Source of the DNA: an uncultured Spirochaetota bacterium
GTDB lineage: Bacteria; Spirochaetota; Brevinematia; Brevinematales; JAOACQ01
Direction of reading: 5' to 3'
DNA: 64,000 bases
NCBI GenBank assembly: GCA_963768055.1
Contig: CAVYGN010000001.1
Location: 352,001-416,000 of the forward strand
Under the pieces are notes generated by a model. It searched no databases and was not told where the DNA came from. It was given only the letters and a program-made list of their open reading frames with translations. This document shows positions 602 to 12,535 of this stretch, piece after piece. A program made the position numbers and the translations under genes. How positions within the stretch are numbered: the first letter of the stretch is position 1; every line of letters starts with the position of its first letter.

Positions 602-3124
602 TTATCTCCGTTCTTCTTTTTCCAGGGCTATTTTTTCTATTGCTTCCGACAGGCTAAGCCCGTCCTTTTCAAGTTCTTTCACCCGCATAACCTCTTTCGC
701 TTCCGATCCGAAAAGAGCTTTTTCAAACGGAGAGGCAATATGCCTTAAAAGCGTATTCCCGTGAGGAGTCATAAGCATAAATTCCGAGTATGAGCCTTTC
801 ACTCCGCCTATGCTTCTGAATAATTTTTCTGTAGCCTCATTGGACAAGTTCAGCTTGTGTTCGTTTTTAAGCCTGTCGATCGATGCGGGTTTCTGCTGGA
901 ATACTACCTGGTAAGAAGCAGTGTCAGCGAGGACCTTTGAATGTTCATTGCAATGAACGTCTTCCAGGGATTGAGTTCCTATAACTATCGAAGCGTAGCA
1001 TTTCCGGTATTGTCTGAAATCCTTTGATATCATTGGAGAAAGGTAAGGGTTGTCCTTGACATTATGGTATTCGTCGTAAGCTATGAATTTTTTCCTGTTA
1101 TAATGCTTTTTCGAATATACGATACTTGATATCTTTGAAAAAATAACCATGTATTCAAAAGTCAGCAGGGTTTCACCTATTTCTTTAACTGGAGGGAGTG
1201 CTATTGCGGTAAGATTGTTATCAAGGGAAAACTGCTTTTTTGAGGGGTTGCAAAGAGCGCCATATATCCCTTTCATTGAATAATTGAATAGCCTGTCCGC
1301 AAGGTTCGGATGTTTTTCTTTCTTTAACTCCGACATTACTTTCTCAACTGTTCCTTCAGAGCCATATTTTTCTGCCACCATTCTTATCGAACTTGACAGA
1401 TATCCAATCAAATCCTCGCCAAGTTTCTCTTTCGGGCTGGCCATAAACTGGAATATGTTTGTGAAATTGAGAAGTTCCTCCGGGCTGATGAACTTTCCTT
1501 CAAGGTTTAAGAATGGGTTAAATGAAATATCGTTATCTTTGTTATTGAAATCCACATATCGGCCGCCAAGAAGCTTTGTCGAGTTCTCATATGAATGCCC
1601 TACCTCGGTAATAACAATTATTGCGTCTTCAGCCAGGTAATTAGCCGCTATGGTCTGGATCAAAAAGGATTTTCCTGTTCCTGGAGGGCCGAATATTAAC
1701 ATCGCGTAATCGGGCGAATCCTCATCGAATATATCGAATAAATATAATTGGGACCTGCGGGTTATGAAAAATAAAGACGGCTTATATGTATTTCCCTTGA
1801 TATCACCGTAATAGGGCGCGATCGATGCGCAATTCCAGGCTGAAAAATGACGCTTCCTATCAAAAAAATCAAGGTTTTGAATATTAAAATTAAGAGGAAG
1901 CGAGTTAAGAAATATCGGGCATTTTATTAATGTTTCCTTTTGTGAAAGGTAACCCGCTCCCTCTATCTGCGAAGTAAGCTTTCTTGAAGAGTCGTTAATA
2001 TCATAGTGTTTTGAATTATTCCTTACCGCCATAAATGAAAGATATCCCTCATGAATATGGTTTCCATCATTGATATCTTTCTCCATTTTTTCAAGTTCGT
2101 TAACCTTCTCCCTTGCGTTCTTGAGTCTTTTCATTACATTGTATGTCGCCTTCTTTTTTTGTATCGTTTCCTTTAATGTCTCCTGCGACAATACCCTGAG
2201 ATTAAAGCATGATACGGTATTGGCGGGAACCTGGTTCCTGTCGGAAATATGGCTCCCAAGAAGGTTCGACGTTCCATATGGATAGATCGAAGAAGGATAA
2301 TTTTTTATTGTTGTTACCGATATTTCCGTTCCATTTGTTTTGATATACTTAGGGTTACTTAAATCAATATACATTTCGGAATCGAGCAGCTGCTCGGCTA
2401 TGAATTCGTCAGGATTGATCTTTGAATATCCGTCCCGGCCGAATAATCTGTCGAAATACCATTTAAGGTTATCGGGTGTGAAATCCGTGCATGGCGTCCC
2501 GGCTTGGATAAATAGATTGGTACATTCTTTCAAAATCCTTAAAACTCTTATTCTTTCATAATTAAAATCATTCTCAATTTCGGACTTTTCTAAACGGCCT
2601 GCTATAGCATTAAATAAATTCTTAAATCCCTCAGGGCTTATAATGCTTTTAATATATGAAACCCCGGTTCGGAATGTGAATAAGACCCTGAAATCCTTCG
2701 GGGTGTAGGTATCCGGGAATCCTCCCCTATATCCCGAATCTTTTGCTTTAAATATAGAATGAGCATTATCCATACAGTATTTTTTTAAAAGTTCGAAATT
2801 CGTCTTTTTCTTTGATATATATGTGCTGAGGTAAGGATCTATGAAATCAGTAGCAAAATTTATTACCTGGATCGAATCGTTCTCTTTTAAAAGGTCGATA
2901 GAGAATATATCTTTCAAAGCTTTTAGCCCGGCCTCGTCAATTCCAAGAATAGGGTAAATTTCAAGTATAAATCCGATCGATCCGTCTTTCATGTGGTAGA
3001 TCCGGTCGGTTTCATCATAATACAAATAGTCGATGAATTCGGAAGTTTTAATCCTTCCTCCGCCGCATAACAGTTCCCATAATGTATAATCAGGTCCATT
3101 ATAATGGACCTTTGATTGATTCAT
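602..3124 (-). CDS. traC: VirB4/TraC-family type IV secretion ATPase
   Basis: 840 aa; Walker A GPPGTGKS, Walker B IAYDEYH, RQYRKCYASIVIGTQS motif; N-terminal LYYDETDRIY...SIGFILE typical of F-type TraC; position after A-L-E-K-B-V genes. Confidence 0.9.
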   Translation of the reverse strand: MNQSKVHYNGPDYTLWELLCGGGRIKTSEFIDYLYYDETDRIYHMKDGSIGFILEIYPILGIDEAGLKALKDIFSIDLLKENDSIQVINFATDFIDPYLSTYISKKKTNFELLKKYCMDNAHSIFKAKDSGYRGGFPDTYTPKDFRVLFTFRTGVSYIKSIISPEGFKNLFNAIAGRLEKSEIENDFNYERIRVLRILKECTNLFIQAGTPCTDFTPDNLKWYFDRLFGRDGYSKINPDEFIAEQLLDSEMYIDLSNPKYIKTNGTEISVTTIKNYPSSIYPYGTSNLLGSHISDRNQVPANTVSCFNLRVLSQETLKETIQKKKATYNVMKRLKNAREKVNELEKMEKDINDGNHIHEGYLSFMAVRNNSKHYDINDSSRKLTSQIEGAGYLSQKETLIKCPIFLNSLPLNFNIQNLDFFDRKRHFSAWNCASIAPYYGDIKGNTYKPSLFFITRRSQLYLFDIFDEDSPDYAMLIFGPPGTGKSFLIQTIAANYLAEDAIIVITEVGHSYENSTKLLGGRYVDFNNKDNDISFNPFLNLEGKFISPEELLNFTNIFQFMASPKEKLGEDLIGYLSSSIRMVAEKYGSEGTVEKVMSELKKEKHPNLADRLFNYSMKGIYGALCNPSKKQFSLDNNLTAIALPPVKEIGETLLTFEYMVIFSKISSIVYSKKHYNRKKFIAYDEYHNVKDNPYLSPMISKDFRQYRKCYASIVIGTQSLEDVHCNEHSKVLADTASYQVVFQQKPASIDRLKNEHKLNLSNEATEKLFRSIGGVKGSYSEFMLMTPHGNTLLRHIASPFEKALFGSEAKEVMRVKELEKDGLSLSEAIEKIALEKEERR

Positions 3125-3128
3125 TTTT

Positions 3129-3479
3129 TTACTCCATCCAATCGGCCCGTTTTAATACCATCATAATATCTGTCCTGGGAACTCTTATAAGGTCGCCTTG
3201 TTTCTTAGGCATGATAACAATCCTTTTGATGATCTCATTTCTTCTCAGCGGAACTATAAGGGTATCGTCATACTGTATTGTATACCCCTGTCCTGCGGTA
3301 AAATATTGCTGGTTTTTATCGGTATTTTCATATTCCTTTCCAGTAAAAGGATCTCCGGAACGCAAATACACTCCATGATACAATGACATTGTATTGTACG
3401 ATGTCGGTATCCTATTCTGGGTCATTGAAATGCATGATGACAGCATTGCTGCAACCATCAGTAATAGAAAATATTTCAT
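3129..3479 (-). CDS. Lipoprotein, TraV-like by position
   Basis: Lipobox MLSSC; lies between traB and traC; C-terminal VPLRRNE..KRIVIMP....GDL......W resembles TraV. Confidence 0.6.
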   Translation of the reverse strand: MKYFLLLMVAAMLSSCISMTQNRIPTSYNTMSLYHGVYLRSGDPFTGKEYENTDKNQQYFTAGQGYTIQYDDTLIVPLRRNEIIKRIVIMPKKQGDLIRVPRTDIMMVLKRADWME

Positions 3480-3499
3480 ATTTACCTTCCTAAACCCAT

Positions 3500-4186
3500 T
3501 TATTTTTCAACAAAATCTTTTGTAAAGAACTCTACAGGCGAAAGCCATGTAACCTCAATTTGCTTCGAATTGATTACAACTAATTCGGGAAGCGTTTCCG
3601 CGGCCATCTTGAGATAAAATGATGATATTTGCGCGAAACTGCTTGAACCTGCCTCCTCAATGACTGTGCCGGCATTGTAATTAGTATTATTACCAGTCCC
3701 GCCGATAGTTAGATTCCCTTTTTGAAGCCATACGGCTAATGATTCCATCGCCGATGCTATGGCGGCCATGGCCACCTGTTCTTCTTCATGGCTTATTATC
3801 GCATCGGCCACAATACCCTCCATACCCTTATAACTAACGAATCCATTTATATCTATATAGCGGGGTGTATTGTTATAATCATAATAGGACATCCCAGTAC
3901 ATTTGATCATGATCTTGCGGCCTGTAAAATCCCCAACTGCCCACCCGGTTACTACTACTCCGTCGACATTAATTTTTCTTTTGTTGGGGGCCTCAGCATA
4001 ACCTTTTAATTGGATCAATATCGGACGAGTCCCTGACGGCGCCCCTTCCATCGGCGCTGTCGCTGATATGAGAAGTATTCCACTCGCTGTAGTTCCGGGG
4101 AGGATTGTAGTTTTGACAGCTTTTTCATCTGTGAATATATATTTGTTAATAAGCAGAAGGAGTATTAAGGGTATCGTTTTTTTCAT
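3500..4186 (-). CDS. traB: TraB/VirB10 (TrbI-like) C-terminal domain protein
   Basis: ILPGTTASGILL..ATAP...PILIQL...G.AVGD...R.MIKC..MS...INGFV...G.EG pattern of the TraB C-domain; own RBS (GGGAGA) and signal-peptide-like N-terminus. Confidence 0.75.
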   Translation of the reverse strand: MKKTIPLILLLLINKYIFTDEKAVKTTILPGTTASGILLISATAPMEGAPSGTRPILIQLKGYAEAPNKRKINVDGVVVTGWAVGDFTGRKIMIKCTGMSYYDYNNTPRYIDINGFVSYKGMEGIVADAIISHEEEQVAMAAIASAMESLAVWLQKGNLTIGGTGNNTNYNAGTVIEEAGSSSFAQISSFYLKMAAETLPELVVINSKQIEVTWLSPVEFFTKDFVEK

Positions 4187-5358: not shown

Positions 5359-5368
5359 TTCCCCTCCA

Positions 5369-5935
5369 TTAACCCTTTTTAGATTCTTGTATATCAGTGC
5401 TGTCGATATAAATACCGCTTATTGTTCTTTTAAAATGGATGGATATTTTTGTTTCATACTGCGCCGCCAGATTGTCTCCCATGTATGAAACCCTTGTTCC
5501 GAAAAGTGTAACTGAATATTTTGAAGGATCGATTTCGGTATCACCCTTCAATTCGAATTCGCTTCGCATTGAATACTTTAAAATTTTTGTATCGTAAAAA
5601 TTCCTGTATTCTTTGTCGTAATCTGCAGTCCTTTCAGGGGTGATCATCGATTTTATCATATCGAAATGAGATAAATAATTCTTTTCATTATAATTTTGAG
5701 TCTGATAAGCATATATTGTTGCGTAATACCTCATTACTGTTACAGGCATGTCAATGTCCGACAATTCCAGTACCTTATTGCTGATCCCCGGGATAATAAT
5801 AGGTTGTTTTTTTATCGCGGATACAGTAAGAATTAAAATCACGAGAACAGCCATTACAATCCTGTCTTTTGTTATTTGCATCCGGTATTTTGTTATTTCG
5901 TCAACGAGTTTGACCGTAAGGTCATTTCCTGTCAT
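5369..5935 (-). CDS. traE: TraE-like (VirB8 fold) conjugative transfer protein
   Basis: 188 aa; single N-terminal TM followed by IIIP; C-terminal VTLFG....YMGD...; position after traL. Confidence 0.75.
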   Translation of the reverse strand: MTGNDLTVKLVDEITKYRMQITKDRIVMAVLVILILTVSAIKKQPIIIPGISNKVLELSDIDMPVTVMRYYATIYAYQTQNYNEKNYLSHFDMIKSMITPERTADYDKEYRNFYDTKILKYSMRSEFELKGDTEIDPSKYSVTLFGTRVSYMGDNLAAQYETKISIHFKRTISGIYIDSTDIQESKKG

Positions 5936-8729: not shown

Positions 8730-9221
8730 ATGAAGGTGAATGATACCGGTGATGTTTCCGTAAAAGGCGAAATGCCGGCGGGTAAAAAGCAGAGAAGGTT
8801 ATGGAAATATTACAGCGCCGTTTTATGGAATATTATTTTTTTCTTTTTCATTAATCTTTATCCGCTCTGGATTTCAAAGACCCGGGGGGGTGTTACAAAC
8901 GATTATATAAAGGTGCTTCTGGCTATGGATGTCTCCGTCATCACAATTATTATTGGAAATGCGGTGCTTATTGCGTTCTCGCCGAAGCGGCTGCGGGAGT
9001 TGATCGAATTTTTCATATCGGTTACTTCGCTGATCTCTGTTTCAGTCTTTCTTGGTATTTTTCCTCTTGATTTTTCTCATATTGCCGGTTCCTGGCTGAA
9101 TACCGTTATAAGATGCCTTCTGATTGCCGGGATCGTCGGGACTTCCATAGGAACAATATCTTCACTTATTAAGTTTATAAAAGCAATTATGCTGACTGAT
9201 TCCAAAGTATTGCTATTGTAA
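8730..9221 (+). CDS. Hypothetical 4-TM membrane protein
   Basis: RBS AAGGAG before ATG 8730 (MKVNDTG...); four hydrophobic segments. Confidence 0.7.
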   Translation: MKVNDTGDVSVKGEMPAGKKQRRLWKYYSAVLWNIIFFFFINLYPLWISKTRGGVTNDYIKVLLAMDVSVITIIIGNAVLIAFSPKRLRELIEFFISVTSLISVSVFLGIFPLDFSHIAGSWLNTVIRCLLIAGIVGTSIGTISSLIKFIKAIMLTDSKVLLL

Positions 9222-9250
9222 CCGGACTAAATAAATTCGGAATTATATAC

Positions 9251-9279
9251 TTGACAAACCAAAGAAAATGAGTTATACT
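9251..9279 (+). promoter_or_regulatory. Transposase promoter with -35 inside the left TIR
   Basis: TTGACA (9251-9256), N17, TATACT (9274-9279). Confidence 0.65.
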
Positions 9280-9310
9280 ATTCTTGAAATAAATGAATAG
9301 GAGAAAAAAT

Positions 9311-10261
9311 ATGAAATTTAATCTTCCTGAATATAAGAATATGAGCGAAATGGCTTATATTGATGTCTGCCGATTATCGGAAGATGAAGCGAGAACAATT
9401 TTAGAAAATATTCGCTGGAAGGATGGTATAATATGTCCTCATTGTGAAAGTAAAAATATTGTTAGAATCATCGGAAAAGCAAAAACCATAAGAGATGGTC
9501 TTATACGCTGTAAGGATTGCAGAAAGCAATTTACAGTTACATCCGGGACAATAATGCATGGGTCACATATTACATTAAGGCAATGGGTACAGGCTTATTA
9601 TTCAATGTGTTCTCATAAAAAGGGTGTTTCGTCTCTCCAGTTACAAAGAAACCTCGGATTACATACTTATAAATCCGCATGGCATTTATCCCATAGGATT
9701 AGGATGACGATGAAAAAGGAGCCTTTAGCAAATATGCTCAATGGACAAGTTGAAGTCGATGAAACCTATGTTGGCGGGAAGCCGAGAAAGGGAAATAACA
9801 GCAACAGCAAAAGAGGGCGAGGAACTGAAAAAGTCCCTGTAATGGTATTGGTTGAAAGAAACGGTAAAGCCGTATCTCATCCTGTTCCCGATGTAACCGG
9901 GGAAACATTAAAGTCAGCCATTAAAGAAGTAGTTAATAAAGAATCAACAATTATTACTGACGAATGGAGAAGTTATAACGGGATTGAAAAAGAGTATAAA
10001 GGCGGCCATAAAGTAATTAATCACGGGATAGGCCAGTATTCAGAGAATGGGATCAATACAAATACCGCCGAATCATATTTTTCACTCTTAAAGAGGGGAA
10101 TCGTAGGAACCTTCCATCATATTTCTAAAAAACATCTTTTCAGGTATTGTGCGGAATTTAATTTCAGATGGAATAACAGGAAAAAAAGCGATGGAGAAAG
10201 AACAGAAAACGCTATTAGGGGGATAGTCGGAAAAAGATTAAAATATAAGGGGGCTTTTTAA
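9311..10261 (+). CDS. IS1595-family DDE transposase
   Basis: Zn ribbon CPHC...CKDC; VEVDETYVGG, ITDEW and NTNTAESYFSLLKRG...HHIS.KHL.RY..EF.FRWN motifs; RBS AGGAG before 9311. Confidence 0.93.
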   Translation: MKFNLPEYKNMSEMAYIDVCRLSEDEARTILENIRWKDGIICPHCESKNIVRIIGKAKTIRDGLIRCKDCRKQFTVTSGTIMHGSHITLRQWVQAYYSMCSHKKGVSSLQLQRNLGLHTYKSAWHLSHRIRMTMKKEPLANMLNGQVEVDETYVGGKPRKGNNSNSKRGRGTEKVPVMVLVERNGKAVSHPVPDVTGETLKSAIKEVVNKESTIITDEWRSYNGIEKEYKGGHKVINHGIGQYSENGINTNTAESYFSLLKRGIVGTFHHISKKHLFRYCAEFNFRWNNRKKSDGERTENAIRGIVGKRLKYKGAF

Positions 10262-10911
10262 TGGATAGCATAAGTAAAGAGACTATACAGATTTTGTTTT
10301 TTCTAATGCCAGGATTATTAGCATCAATATTTGTAGAATCATTAATTGTAAGAAAAGGACGGGATCAGTTTACTTTAATAGTTGAAGCATTGATATTTTC
10401 AGTATTTATTTACATTACTTATCAATTAATTAACGGAAAAAAAATCATAAACTTTCTGGAAAATTATGATTATATGTGTATTACTCAATATTTAGAATTG
10501 GTTGGAATAAGTATATTTTATGGAATATTATTTGGCGTATTAATATACAGAGACGCTTTCCATTGGTTTTTCAGAACAATTAAGATCACAAAAAAAACAT
10601 CAAGAATGTCTATATGGAACGATATTATGGAAACAAATTTGGGAAAGAAAAATTGGGCAAATATCCATATGTCTAATGGTCAAATTATTATAGGTCAAAT
10701 TTATGGATATTCTGATAGTCCAGATAGTCAATATATATTTGTTGAGAATCCTTATCTTAAAAAGAATGAAGAAGAAATATTATCTCATCCTTATTATAAC
10801 CCTATTCTTTTGAAGAAAGGCAAAAAAAAATTAATTGATGGGATATTGATAACACCCGAAATGAAAATAGATTATATTGAATTTTTTAAAGATGAAACAA
10901 TTAAGAATTAA
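10261..10911 (+). CDS. IS passenger membrane protein (DUF6338-like)
   Basis: LMPG motif, three TMs, then SIW..., G..IIG....YSDSP....IF soluble domain; very AT-rich; TAATG-coupled to the transposase. Confidence 0.65.
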   Translation: MDSISKETIQILFFLMPGLLASIFVESLIVRKGRDQFTLIVEALIFSVFIYITYQLINGKKIINFLENYDYMCITQYLELVGISIFYGILFGVLIYRDAFHWFFRTIKITKKTSRMSIWNDIMETNLGKKNWANIHMSNGQIIIGQIYGYSDSPDSQYIFVENPYLKKNEEEILSHPYYNPILLKKGKKKLIDGILITPEMKIDYIEFFKDETIKN

Positions 10912-11063
10912 TTATCTGATGTACTATTATTAGAGTTATTATTATTTTCTTGTGTAGTAGTTTCTGTTTGAGGGGTATCAAACAATGTGCTTATATCCTC
11001 ACCTTCAAGAGGTTCGTGATGACCGACTAATGATTTCCATACAACATTATTGGGGTTTGGCAT
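10908..11063 (-). CDS. Small 51-aa passenger protein (not in ORF track)
   Basis: MPNPNNVVWKSLVGHHEPLEGEDISTLFDTPQTETTTQENNNNSNNSTSDN; RBS AAGGAG; dedicated consensus promoter; stop overlaps the convergent gene's stop (TTAA). Confidence 0.6.
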   Translation of the reverse strand: MPNPNNVVWKSLVGHHEPLEGEDISTLFDTPQTETTTQENNNNSNNSTSDN

Positions 11064-11094
11064 ATTTTATACTCCTTAATGATTTACCTAAAAT

Positions 11095-11124
11095 ATTATA
11101 AAGGAATTATATATATTATGTCAA
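11095..11124 (-). promoter_or_regulatory. Consensus sigma70 promoter for the 51-aa ORF
   Basis: Minus strand TTGACA (11124-11119), N18, TATAAT (11100-11095). Confidence 0.65.
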
Positions 11125-11147
11125 GTATATAAAAATGGGGTTATGAA

Positions 11148-11279
11148 ATGAGAAAGAGAAAAACGAGAACAAACGAAGGGAAAAAGTATGATAAACCAAT
11201 ATCGGCCTATCCCTTAAAACCCGAAGAATTGATAAAGGCTATTTTTGAGGTTAAGATAGATGGTTTGTCAAAGGTATAG
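11148..11279 (+). CDS. Small basic 43-aa ORF ending inside the right TIR
   Basis: MRKRKTRTNEGKKYDKPISAYPLKPEELIKAIFEVKIDGLSKV; GGGG about 8 nt upstream; amphipathic C-terminal helix. Confidence 0.35.
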   Translation: MRKRKTRTNEGKKYDKPISAYPLKPEELIKAIFEVKIDGLSKV

Positions 11280-11345
11280 TTCCGAATAAATTTTCAGAAT
11301 TTGCCAAATTATTTTTCTGATTAAATTACAATAATGGAGCTGGCG

Positions 11346-12535
11346 ATGCCTGTTTTTGAACCTGATGAATACGCAGGTTAAGTAAACTGACTGGTATAAT
11401 ACGAACCAAGAGCCTTGATTTGGTTCTTATCAGCTACCCGAGGGATATCTATTATTATACGGGTTCCTTGCAGCCGCTGTATTTCATAGTATCTACCGGG
11501 AATGAACCGCTTGCCGCGGCCAGAAAAGGCATCCCCAGAATAGAAGAAGAAACTGTTAATGTTGAAATAGCGCCGTTTTCAAATACGAATGAATTTGAGA
11601 AAATACTCAGAAGCAGGACATCAAAAAAGAACCCCGGAATCGGATTATGCTTCGAAACTATCAGCCATAAGTCATACAACAGGATAAGCGAAATTTTCCC
11701 GGGTTCTTTAATATCCGATATTTCCTGGGATGTAAGGCTTCTAAGAACCGTAAAAAGCATAAAAGAAATCGAGTTGATCAGGCATGCGGGAAAGATCATG
11801 GCAAGGATACCTGAGATACTTCTTTCGCGTTTTCATTCCGGAATGACCGAGCTTGAGATGTCTGTTATTATTGAGGATTATTTCAGGTCGGAAGGCCTCG
11901 GTTATAATTGCAGCCGTCAGGATGGGATCAATTTCGGCTTCGGAGTCTTCAGTGCCGGCATTAATTCCATGAATCCGACAAGGTTTGACGGGATCTGCTC
12001 AGGCAAAGGCCTTTCTCCGGCTATGCCTTTCGGGGCCGGACATTCGATGATTGGAAAGGGAGTCCCCGTAATTGCAGATTTCGGCGTAACTATGGAAGGT
12101 TATCATGCCGACCAGACAAGGATGTTCTGCTGGGGCAAGCCAAGCAGCCTTGTAATAGAGGCATATTCGGCAATGCTTGAGATCGAAAACGATCTGATTG
12201 ACTTCATTAAGCCGGGAATGCCATGGTATTCTCCATATGAAAGGTCGTTGAAACTCGCAGAAGAAAAGGGTTATGCAAGCTCTTTCATGGGATCGGGGAG
12301 AGAAAGGGTTAAATTTATAGGGCATGGCGTCGGGCTTGAACTCGATGAACCGCCATTCCTTTCAAAGGGTATGGATTATATAATCGAGGAAGGCATGGTC
12401 ATTGCCGTTGAACCTAAGGTTAGCCTTGCCGGGTATGGGGTTATTGGTGTCGAGGATACGATAGTTATAACAAAGGATGGGAACAACTATCTTACAGAAG
12501 CGCCCAGGGATTTTATTTGCAGCCGAGGCAAATAA
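11346..12535 (+). pseudogene. Xaa-Pro aminopeptidase (M24) with an N-terminal frameshift (or sequence error)
   Basis: M24 motifs DFG...YHADQTR, GHGVGLELDEPP, AVEPK, GVEDT; the RBS-preceded ATG 11346 (MPVFEPDE) is out of frame with the body (IRRLSKLTG...) by one base near 11368. Confidence 0.75.

Follow-up and report, generated by a model that had tools for sequence, protein, structure and literature searches.

Insertion sequences (IS) can be controlled by antisense RNAs that they encode themselves, and promoters can be embedded in their terminal repeats. An example is RNA-OUT of IS10. For the IS1595 family, we know of no experimental demonstration of antisense or end-promoter control. Some members of that family, the transporter IS (tIS), were reportedly defined by Siguier, Gagnevin and Chandler in 2009. 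The term "transporter IS" can be found in print in passages of PMC3129680 that cite Siguier et al. 2009.

A second system of interest comes from Pseudomonas stutzeri. According to the relevant passages of PMC10433244, a DUF6338 gene and three proline-rich small proteins form one predicted operon in this species. The three peptides, 36-47 aa long, are encoded directly after the DUF6338 gene and were detected by proteomics with 44-114 spectra. The same passages report them as not conserved outside P. stutzeri.

The locus described here lies in the window, the whole 64,000-nucleotide stretch of DNA that was analysed. Positions 9238-11284 of the window are an IS1595-family transporter IS of 2,047 bp. 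Its left terminal inverted repeat of 24 bp (9238..9261, + strand) pairs with the right one (11261..11284, - strand) at 20 of 24 bases. The 8-bp target-site duplication AATAAATT stands to the left at 9230..9237 and, with identical bases, to the right at 11285..11292. The genome contains two copies of the element on two contigs, 100% identical and with the same ends, and the second copy is flanked by a different 8-bp duplication. Since the two copies are identical, they are uninformative on selection.

A DDE transposase with a zinc ribbon, inverted ends, 8-bp duplications and mobility as a unit place the element in the IS1595 family. The presence of a DUF6338 gene and a small open reading frame, pep51, between the transposase and the right end makes it a transporter IS. 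It is an intact, recently mobile transporter IS of a known cargo-carrying kind. The earlier note had described an IS-borne convergent pair at 10261-11132. The pair does lie inside the ends of an IS1595-family element, but the span covers only its cargo part; the whole element extends from 9238 to 11284, between the two duplications.

The left-repeat core, TATACTTGACAAAC, is kept in relatives of many phyla. Across the whole genome, the core at up to 2 mismatches has 52 matches, compared with 36 for a control word, and is not enriched. A solo left-end relic occurs elsewhere in the same genome.

The transposase gene (9311..10261, + strand) encodes 316 aa from the ATG at 9311. An alternative upstream ATG at 9293 would give 322 aa; AGGAG stands 7 nt before the ATG at 9311, and related transposases begin at the equivalent MKY or MKF. 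The protein matches the Pfam families DDE_Tnp_IS1595 (PF12762; 1.1e-44, 152.6 bits) and Zn_ribbon_IS1595 (PF12760; 4.8e-12, 46.1 bits), both above cut-off. Its predicted promoter, TTGACA-N17-TATACT (9251..9279, + strand), has its -35 box within the left repeat and, with 11 of 12 consensus bases, is the second-best promoter match in the region.

A search for related transposases found 135, and 80 loci were kept. Both ends could be recognized, within 2 mismatches of the core, at 27 of 77 distinct related loci. These elements are 1.6-3.8 kb long and so carry passengers. Relatives hold different cargo in the same slot, and DUF6338 cargo is absent from the relatives of this IS, including the 27 elements with both ends.

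The slot is closed on the right by orf43 (11148..11279, + strand), a small basic reading frame of 43 codons whose stop codon lies inside the right repeat. Searches of Pfam and PHROGs gave nothing significant for orf43. By tblastn (E-values 1.6e-6 to 4e-3), relatives adjoin the right end at three related loci (L058, L059 and L065) and directly follow the transposase at four others (L054-57). In L059, the ORF has the same last five residues, encoded by the end. Judging from these sequences, orf43 and the right end are a conserved, ancestral backbone of the IS lineage. The earlier note had offered a 14-bp sequence at 11119-11132 as an older right end, implying stepwise growth of the IS. This is disfavoured, as orf43 and the right end, which lie beyond the 14-mer, belong to that backbone; a complete element would thus not have ended at 11132.

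Between the transposase and orf43, the slot holds an apparently foreign, very AT-rich module, consisting of the DUF6338 gene and a convergent ORF of 51 codons. The GC content of the cargo is 25-28%; the genome as a whole has 41.5%, and the DNA adjoining the element on the right 39-48%.

The DUF6338 gene (10261..10911, + strand) encodes a protein of 216 aa. Its start overlaps the transposase stop (TAATG), and on this arrangement the gene is predicted to be translationally coupled to the transposase. The protein passes the gathering score of the Pfam family (PF19865; 28.4 bits, cut-off 26.5), its 4 non-self matches all carry PF19865, and its atlas neighbours are DUF6338 clusters (0.94). There are 383 representative relatives, and the closest (P0006) is 46% identical. 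Searching the genome contigs with the single cargo protein found no relative. A 15-row DUF6338 alignment was used as a profile on genome contigs and on viral contigs; loci were found in the former and nothing in the latter.

The AlphaFold2 model of the DUF6338 protein has a pLDDT of 86.1. It predicts three membrane helices followed by a cytoplasmic C-terminal small beta-barrel of the Sm/SH3-like type. Three helices peak above 2.0 in hydropathy, and basic loops lie on the barrel side. In the VIA search, residues 112-213 align with Sm/LSm/Hfq chains at Z 8.7-7.0 (rmsd about 2-3 Å over 60-76 residues). Among the matches listed, 12 chains have Z of at least 8, nearly all of them Sm/LSm/Hfq; values of Z 7-8 are common for unmatched models. 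The Foldseek matches listed are mostly Sm proteins as well, but they are weak (best E 7.5e-3), and no PDB match reached E <= 0.001.

Two other architectures, MscS-like and CBASS Cap15-like, were considered. Neither occurs among the 50 matches listed in each of the two fold searches, and neither is claimed.

The earlier note had suggested that the pair might act in toxin-antitoxin function or phage defence. In such a case, the DUF6338 gene and its small ORF would be an addiction or defence cargo of the IS. Some context points this way. PIN-domain genes occur in 6 related IS elements, an NYN gene, a restriction-methylase fusion and a Cas2-like gene are also found among the relatives, and the DUF2971 protein carried by a relative from the same genus matches the candidate defence family PDC-S31. 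The DUF6338 gene is also patchy, being present in 5 of 401 genomes of the phylum, and one full-length fold match of its protein is a siphovirus protein. However, DUF6338, pep51 and orf43 match no PADLOC model (E <= 0.1) and no Pfam toxin or antitoxin family. Searches by tblastn found no relative of the cargo in phage records and just one in plasmid records, a distant DUF6338 gene on a Paludisphaera plasmid. No known defence neighbours were seen at the related loci examined. Most cargo proteins of the IS relatives are without any Pfam family, so the cargo census is thin. A toxin-antitoxin-like or anti-phage module is therefore considered improbable; the suggestion draws on the PIN, restriction-modification and PDC-S31-like cargo of relatives and receives nothing from the PADLOC comparison of the two genes themselves.

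DUF6338 genes of this subfamily have small neighbours. Downstream sequence is available for 14 distinct loci of the subfamily, and at each of them a small ORF stands at the 3' end of the gene. At 11 of the 14, the ORF directly after the gene shares a peptide motif, a Gly/Asn-Pro stretch followed by a Pro run ending in Lys. Ten of these loci encode motif-bearing peptides with 17-31% Pro and a net charge of +1 or more; the eleventh, L034, has 10% Pro and a charge of +5. The design recurs in named Spirochaetota and KSB1 MAGs, in a MAG labelled Clostridia and in unclassified metagenome contigs. Wider sampling across other phyla, for which few genomes were included, gave one extra DUF6338 locus (L136). 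Searches of Pfam and PHROGs with the partner peptides gave nothing significant. Judging from these loci, the usual arrangement in the subfamily is a DUF6338 gene with one to three genes for putative tiny basic, proline-rich proteins immediately behind it.

The small ORF can also be convergent, as it is in L003, L017 and L034. The first of these is a paralogous DUF6338 gene in the same genome. There, a convergent ORF of 77 aa has a stop abutting that of the DUF6338 gene, a TTGACA-N18 promoter of its own and an SD.

In the element, the partner position is occupied by pep51 (10908..11063, - strand), a convergent ORF of 51 codons that is acidic and rich in Asn and Thr. Its stop overlaps the DUF6338 stop on the opposite strand, both sharing TTAA at 10908-10911. 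A ribosome-binding site, AAGGAG (11072..11077, - strand), stands 8 nt before its ATG. With a net charge of -7 and 8% Pro, pep51 shares neither the motif nor the basic, proline-rich composition of the partner peptides, and the profile of 12 such peptides does not match it. Run against 79,586 six-frame genome ORFs, that profile gave 725 matches, and neither pep51 nor the paralog's 77-aa ORF was among them. BLASTP between these two gave an E-value of 48. A search of 5.8 billion proteins returned pep51 itself as the sole match, and Pfam and PHROGs held nothing significant. No remnant of a co-directional proline-rich ORF was seen on the + strand after 10911.

The proposal that the pair is a peptide/membrane-partner module thus holds at the level of the family (11 of 14 loci) but finds no support in pep51, whose sequence does not resemble the partner peptides. 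Likewise, the recommended survey for small ORFs beside DUF6338 homologs found them at 14 of 14 loci, but none was similar to pep51. The sequences suggest that the usual partner peptide has been replaced here by an unrelated gene of 51 codons under a promoter copied from the IS end.

The pep51 promoter, TTGACA-N18-TATAAT (11095..11124, - strand; -35 at 11119-11124, -10 at 11095-11100), is the sole 12/12 match in 9100-11450. Perfect promoters of this kind with spacers of 16-18 nt number 67 on both strands of the 3.69-Mb genome. Two of them are the pep51 promoter, one per IS copy, and 28 of the 67 have an SD, a start and an ORF of at least 100 codons within 120 nt downstream. Every feature that had been named for the small ORF (AAGGAG, the perfect promoter and the TTAA stop overlap) is present in the sequence and beyond chance.

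This promoter appears to be a mosaic of sequences copied from the left end. An inverted 14-bp sequence at 11119..11132 (- strand), which contains the -35 box, is the exact reverse complement of left-end bases 9243-9256, as the earlier note had seen. The 14-mer has 2 matches in the window where 0.02 are expected, and 2 matches occurred in 0 of 100 shuffles. A direct copy of left-end bases 9239-9249, 11 bp long, lies in the promoter spacer (11103..11113, + strand); it has 2 matches in the window where 0.09 are expected. Both copies exceed chance, which supports the derivation of the promoter from the terminal repeat.

The leader may be a copy of the left end as well, given its likeness to the transposase leader, which extends through the SD to the ATG. 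Aligned globally from the -35 box to the ATG (57/58 nt), the pep51 and transposase regions score 15; shuffles score -0.45 +/- 3.6, and 0 of 2,000 reach 15. The local score of the two leaders is 19, compared with 10.3 +/- 2.4 for 103 real promoter-leader regions from the same genome, of which one reaches 19.

The 14-mer carries 11 of 14 bases of the end core conserved across phyla. Shared binding by the transposase at both promoters therefore remains plausible. A hairpin in 11090-11150 is not above shuffles (z -0.53).

Taken together, these results favour a transporter IS with foreign DUF6338/pep51 cargo, in which the pep51 promoter derives from copies of the left end and in which regulation and barrel docking are putative parts. 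A rough probability of 0.6 is assigned to this reading. The promoter would be active, and its transcript would encode pep51. With no terminator between the abutting stops, the same transcript would also run antisense into the 3' part of the mRNA for transposase and DUF6338. The transposase, for which the conserved core of the ends is the expected target, may bind at both promoters, and the beta-barrel could be the docking site of the small partner protein.

Antisense read-through, which the earlier note had proposed, is consistent with the sequence, as the prediction placed no terminator-like site between the two converging genes or behind them. The sole terminator-like site in 9100-11450, a hairpin with a T run at 11190..11211 (- strand), faces transcription entering from the right flank; shuffles average 1.1 such sites, so it is not above chance.

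Alternatively, pep51 may be non-functional and its open frame incidental. The copied promoter would then be a source of convergent transcription and antisense RNA, which would damp the transposase-DUF6338 transcript or keep it from extending across orf43 and beyond the element. The overlapping stops, with no terminator-like site around them, suit this idea, and pep51 has no relatives. In the paralogous module, the convergent promoter and ORF are kept while the peptides share nothing, as expected if the arrangement, and not the protein, is conserved. The expression signals of pep51 appear to be inherited from the left end. Should duplication have supplied the promoter, SD and ATG, none of these signals would speak independently for a translated gene, and the remaining evidence would be how long the frame stays open (1.6-5% by chance).

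In 5,000 dinucleotide shuffles of 10908-11147, an ATG ORF of at least 51 codons arose in 5.0%, and one that also had an SD-like motif in 0.12%. With the ATG fixed, the frame stayed open for at least 50 codons in 1.6% of 20,000 shuffles. Against an incidental frame, then, stand its 50 open codons after the ATG, which fill the entire gap as far as the DUF6338 stop, the presence of a small ORF in the same place at 14 of 14 related loci, and the true translation of comparable small ORFs in P. stutzeri, as reported in passages of PMC10433244. A non-functional pep51 is considered somewhat unlikely.

The end copies at 11103-11132 could also be scars of cargo capture without a regulatory role. They might mark a former right end, or a nested mini-element (11103-11284) with these copies as its left end, or the collapse of two IS copies. 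The copies do lie exactly at the junction of cargo and backbone, and the solo left-end relic (L004) belongs to the same line of evidence. So does L091, in which two right-end cores lie 73 bp apart. L091 is the only other element in which a further copy of the end core lies inward of the end, so internal end copies are no lineage-wide design. On the other hand, the 14-mer is perfect, yet neither of its flanks resembles an end: the 5 outermost bases are missing, as is the inner AACC. A promoter piece that was selected or copied recently fits this better than an end in decay. The ancestral backbone beyond 11132 also counts against a former terminus of a complete element, and a separate copy of 11103-11284 was not found in the genome. 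Scars of capture are regarded as rather unlikely.

A bolder extension of the preferred reading, in which pep51 is cargo under a copied end promoter, concerns the DUF6338 family at large. Its members would be membrane-anchored small-barrel receptors for adjacent proline-rich peptides. In this genome, an IS would have captured such a module. The partner gene would have been inverted, its product exchanged for an acidic peptide, and its expression placed under a copied operator-promoter of the transposase. This is speculative, and the odds are distinctly against it. If true, a two-gene DUF6338/peptide module is widespread in several phyla and has been overlooked, since such short peptides seldom receive an annotation. 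In the IS, one control would then govern both the output of the module and the level of transposase; the arrangement could, for instance, promote retention of the IS by addiction or exclusion.

The new elements here are the backbone gene orf43, the copied promoter and the partner peptides beside DUF6338. Transporter IS blur the boundary between insertion sequence and transposon, and their cargo reveals which small functions spread most easily. Re-use of an end-embedded promoter for a passenger ORF would be a simple route to couple cargo expression with transposase control. DUF6338, a family without known function, gains a predicted fold of three membrane helices and a small beta-barrel. The proline-rich micro-proteins known from the proteomics of one Pseudomonas species become part of a design that recurs beside DUF6338 genes. 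The resulting hypothesis, that the barrel binds the peptide, is directly testable.

Among known proteins, the Sm/LSm/Hfq and SH3-like barrels may come nearest to the fold predicted for residues 112-213, in which a helix at the N-terminal side leads into a bent sheet of five strands. In contrast to Sm/LSm/Hfq barrels, the DUF6338 barrel is fused to three membrane helices, and sequence identity is only 8-18%.

The P. stutzeri system, as far as the passages of PMC10433244 describe it, likewise has a DUF6338 membrane protein followed by very small hydrophilic ORFs, and its peptide design is common to 11 of the 14 loci related to the gene in the window. The small ORF in the window differs from it in being convergent, acidic, not proline-rich and unrelated in sequence, and the module in the window is carried on an IS.

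With IS10 RNA-OUT, the element shares a transposase promoter within the end, through which the transposase could repress itself, and a predicted second promoter giving RNA antisense to the transposase operon. The antisense RNA here would cover the 3' end of the operon rather than the translation start, and it carries an ORF.

Finally, the element resembles the tIS of the IS1595 family in its single DDE transposase, which has a zinc ribbon in the N-terminal part, in its short inverted ends and 8-bp duplication, and in its co-mobile passenger genes unrelated to transposition. It differs from them in that its cargo is a DUF6338 gene and that a second, inward-facing promoter is apparently made of copies of the left end. 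The conserved small ORF that terminates inside the right end may be a further difference.

The convergent pair is carried by a recently mobile element. The transposase at 9293/9311-10261 belongs to the IS1595 family (Pfam: DDE_Tnp_IS1595, 1.1e-44, together with the family zinc ribbon). A second copy of the element, 100% identical, is present in the genome (3.69 Mb, two contigs). Alignment of the flanks of both copies places the limits at 9238 and 11284, giving 2,047 bp with ends of 24 bp (20/24 bases complementary). Because the copies are identical, have the same limits and are each flanked by their own, distinct 8-bp target duplication, the whole unit, including the 51-codon ORF pep51 and all that lies to its right, has transposed recently. 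The G+C content of the cargo is 25-28%, against a genome mean of 41.5% and 39-48% immediately right of the element. No full-length copy was found when 60 other genomes, four of them of the same genus, were searched with the element DNA. Among these, a related transposase (72% identity in both DNA and protein), with different cargo behind it, was seen in the same-genus genome G004 alone.

Relatives of the transposase can be found widely: 135 occur in a collection of species-representative genomes. Eighty loci were kept, of which 77 are distinct, L055-57 being left out as copies of L054. The left-end core TATACTTGACAAAC is common to relatives in Planctomycetota, Chloroflexota, Nitrospirota, Pseudomonadota and other phyla. 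In 27/77 loci both ends are at most two mismatches from the core, and since these elements are 1.6-3.8 kb long and the transposase gene takes up only ~0.95 kb, they carry passengers. (For L061 the automatically chosen outer end site is false; the true right end is at ~5200.) Passenger-carrying elements belong to a known kind, the transporter IS, in the available text of PMC3129680, and the element is of this kind. Contig 1 of the same genome (L004, ~1685013-1685056) also has a lone left-end-like repeat from a related IS; no transposase adjoins it, and it is probably a relic end.

Cargo proteins of the relatives (13 + 44) were checked with Pfam, and most have no Pfam family. PIN-type domains are found in six elements (L061, below the cut-off, L063, L064, L065, L085 and L097), with a NYN domain also in L063. 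L058 encodes an 843-aa methylase/restriction fusion, and DUF3800 occurs in three elements, DUF1828 in two, and DUF5343 and a Cas2-like protein in one each. In the G004 locus (L006, 188-2441) the transposase is followed by a DUF2971 protein matching the candidate defence family PDC-S31 (PADLOC), beside which lies a 140-aa protein with a NarE-family match below the cut-off; the retrieved stretch shows no inverted ends. Pfam found DUF6338 in none of the cargo ORFs, those of the G004 locus included.

The earlier note described a convergent pair of ORFs with its expression signals, and all of these are present; its interpretation finds partial support. The DUF6338-like ORF (216 aa) lies at 10261-10911 on the plus strand, its start codon overlapping the transposase stop, and pep51 runs from 11063 to 10908 on the minus strand. 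The TTAA at 10908-10911 supplies the four bases common to both stop codons. An AAGGAG is located 8 nt upstream of the pep51 ATG, preceded on the minus strand by a promoter matching the sigma-70 consensus at 12/12 positions (-35 TTGACA at 11124-11119, an 18-nt spacer, -10 TATAAT at 11100-11095). No other promoter match in 9100-11450 is as good; next comes the transposase promoter, which lies in the left end and matches at 11/12 positions. Terminator prediction found none between or behind the converging genes. The sole terminator-like hairpin of the element, at 11190-11211 on the minus strand, lies within the 43-codon orf43 on the opposite strand; it would halt transcription from the right flank short of the pep51 promoter, and the count is not above that of shuffles.

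The pep51 promoter contains material from the left end. The 14 bases at 11119-11132 are the exact reverse complement of 9243-9256 (2 matches in the 64-kb window vs 0.02 expected), and judged by sequence they are surely a copy of the left end. The promoter spacer holds a direct 11-bp copy (11103-11113) of left-end bases 9239-9249, with 2 window matches vs 0.09 expected. Aligned from -35 to ATG, the transposase and pep51 regions (57 and 58 nt) score 15, which 0/2,000 dinucleotide shuffles reach (-0.45 +/- 3.6). Functional convergence was controlled for with 103 real promoter-SD-ATG regions taken from this genome. The local alignment score of the two regions is 19, against 10.3 +/- 2.4 in the controls, one of which also reaches 19. 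Common descent of the two leaders is suggestive only.

Alternatively, as the note had proposed, the 14-mer could be an older right end; 11132 would then be the former terminus of a complete element. The 14-mer lacks the end's outermost five bases and inner AACC, and so could not act as a transposition end. Evidence against this reading is also provided by orf43 (11148-11279, plus strand), a part absent from the note, which has relatives in the closest IS relatives (tblastn: L059, E 1.6e-6; L054-57, 4e-6; L058, 3e-3; L065, 4e-3). An orf43-like ORF immediately precedes the right end in L058, L059 and L065, and in both the window and L059 the right end itself encodes the last five codons and the stop. 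Given these relatives, 11148-11284 is ancestral IS backbone, with the cargo slot between transposase and orf43. A former terminus at 11132 is thereby disfavoured.

Among other elements, an extra inward-facing core copy is found in L091 only. Two right-end cores lie there 73 bp apart (5367-5453, one mismatch each), which could represent a duplicated or stepwise-extended end. Further small ORFs were matched by tblastn near the cargo, on either strand, in L061, L063, L066, L068, L078, L084, L091, L095, L100 and L105. Their C termini have an acidic-Leu stretch in common, then a Thr-Pro-Pro stretch and finally a lysine-rich tail, which resembles orf43 and the DUF6338 partner peptides alike.

Whether pep51 is a gene can be approached through chance expectation. 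When the spacer region is shuffled, 5.0% of the sequences contain an ORF of pep51's length, and 0.12% one that also has an SD. If promoter, SD and ATG came with a duplicated left end, the length of the frame is the sole independent evidence, and a frame open for at least 50 codons after a fixed ATG occurs in 1.6% of shuffles. Perfect consensus promoters are in use in the organism: of the 67 in its genome, 28 lie ahead of an SD and a start codon that opens an ORF of at least 100 codons. The two IS copies, being identical, are uninformative on selection. Only pep51 itself was found among 5.8 billion proteins, and it has no match in Pfam, PHROGs or PADLOC.

The cargo protein, of 216 aa, is a true member of the DUF6338 family. 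Its AlphaFold2 model (41-row alignment; pLDDT 86.1, pTM 0.75) has three predicted membrane helices with hydropathy peaks above 2.0 (6-28, 36-58 and 74-96) and a small beta-barrel at residues 112-213. Because loops 29-35 and 97-117 are basic, the C-terminal domain would, by the positive-inside rule, lie in the cytoplasm. The best barrel matches listed by VIA are almost all Sm/LSm/Hfq chains (Z 8.7 to ~7, 12 chains with Z of at least 8), though Z values of 7-8 are common for unmatched models as well. Sm proteins also dominate the matches listed by Foldseek, with a best E of only 7.5e-3. The predicted barrel is likely of the Sm/LSm/Hfq fold class, of which it is a candidate member. One siphovirus protein matches the full-length fold (E 5.1e-6). 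Proline-rich ligands are a frequent target of small SH3/Sm-type barrels; this, with the linkage of DUF6338 and peptide genes, suggests that the predicted barrel docks the partner peptide.

If the transposase and pep51 promoters both fire, the 3' parts of the transposase-DUF6338 RNA and of the pep51 RNA would overlap. Both promoter copies might be occupied by the transposase, and pep51 or its RNA could modulate the DUF6338 gene. By analogy with the company of related elements, DUF6338 and the small ORF might form a toxin-antitoxin-like or anti-phage module serving as addiction or defence cargo, a possibility to which we would give about one chance in five.

An exhaustive search found 383 representatives related to the cargo protein at E <= 0.001 (72 at <= 1e-10; best non-self 46% identical). 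DUF6338 is rare in its own phylum: the protein query finds it in 5/401 genomes and the Pfam model in 16/401, nine of them over the cut-off. Downstream sequence is available for 14 distinct loci of the close subfamily (the window, L003, L015, L016, L017, L018, L019, L025, L026, L029, L030, L033, L034 and L136); L020, whose match runs off the contig, and L021, whose gene seems truncated (180 aa), were left out. In all 14, a small ORF (35-77 aa) begins or ends no more than 78 nt from the DUF6338 stop. Eleven share a design, a Gly/Asn-Pro stretch followed by a proline run with terminal lysines (17-31% Pro in ten, 10% in L034), which supports the peptide/membrane-partner module of the earlier note for the family, though not for pep51. 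Nine of these are co-directional; the other two, from the Spirochaetota loci L017 and L034, are convergent. The three loci without the design, namely the window, its paralog L003 and L015, have the most AT-rich genes (24-26% G+C). No small motif ORF lies beside the gene in 13 more distant DUF6338 loci of the phylum, and none of 154 retrieved proteins has a fused proline-rich tail. In L034 (Leptospirales; 3116-4185, minus strand) a same-strand gene for an HTH/repressor-like protein of 296 aa ends 12 nt ahead of the convergent peptide, which may thus be part of that operon and not go with the DUF6338 gene.

The sole publication found to mention DUF6338 reports, in its available text, three novel proline-rich proteins (36, 47 and 41 aa) directly after the P. 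stutzeri DUF6338 gene, detected with 85, 114 and 44 spectra by digest-free proteomics and called not conserved beyond the species (PMC10433244). Their sequences in supplementary file 3 have the same design as the partner peptides found here. A metagenome contig (L019, 1899-2408) has three tandem proline-rich small ORFs after one DUF6338 gene, a number equal to that detected in P. stutzeri. Of the by-products of the analysis, the most useful are this cross-phylum link of proline-rich micro-proteins to DUF6338 and a predicted fold for its family.

The paralog L003 (contig 2 of the same genome, 336674-339727; features at 800-925, 965-1582 and 1584-1817) is a second DUF6338 gene, 37% identical, with 24% G+C and not in an IS. 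An orf43-like small ORF lies just upstream and a 77-aa ORF converges from downstream. The genes seem to follow the order of the IS cargo, circularly permuted. Both loci have a DUF6338 gene, a convergent small ORF, abutting stops, and a separate TTGACA-N18 promoter with an SD. By BLASTP, pep51 gives E 48 against the L003 ORF and E 0.058 against that of L015. When a profile of 12 partner peptides was run on the complete set of 79,586 six-frame ORFs in the genome, neither pep51 nor the 77-aa ORF was among its 725 matches at E <= 1000. pep51 occupies the partner position at the 3' end of its DUF6338 gene, yet by its sequence it is not one of the proline-rich partner peptides: these are basic, whereas pep51 is acidic, with a net charge of -7.
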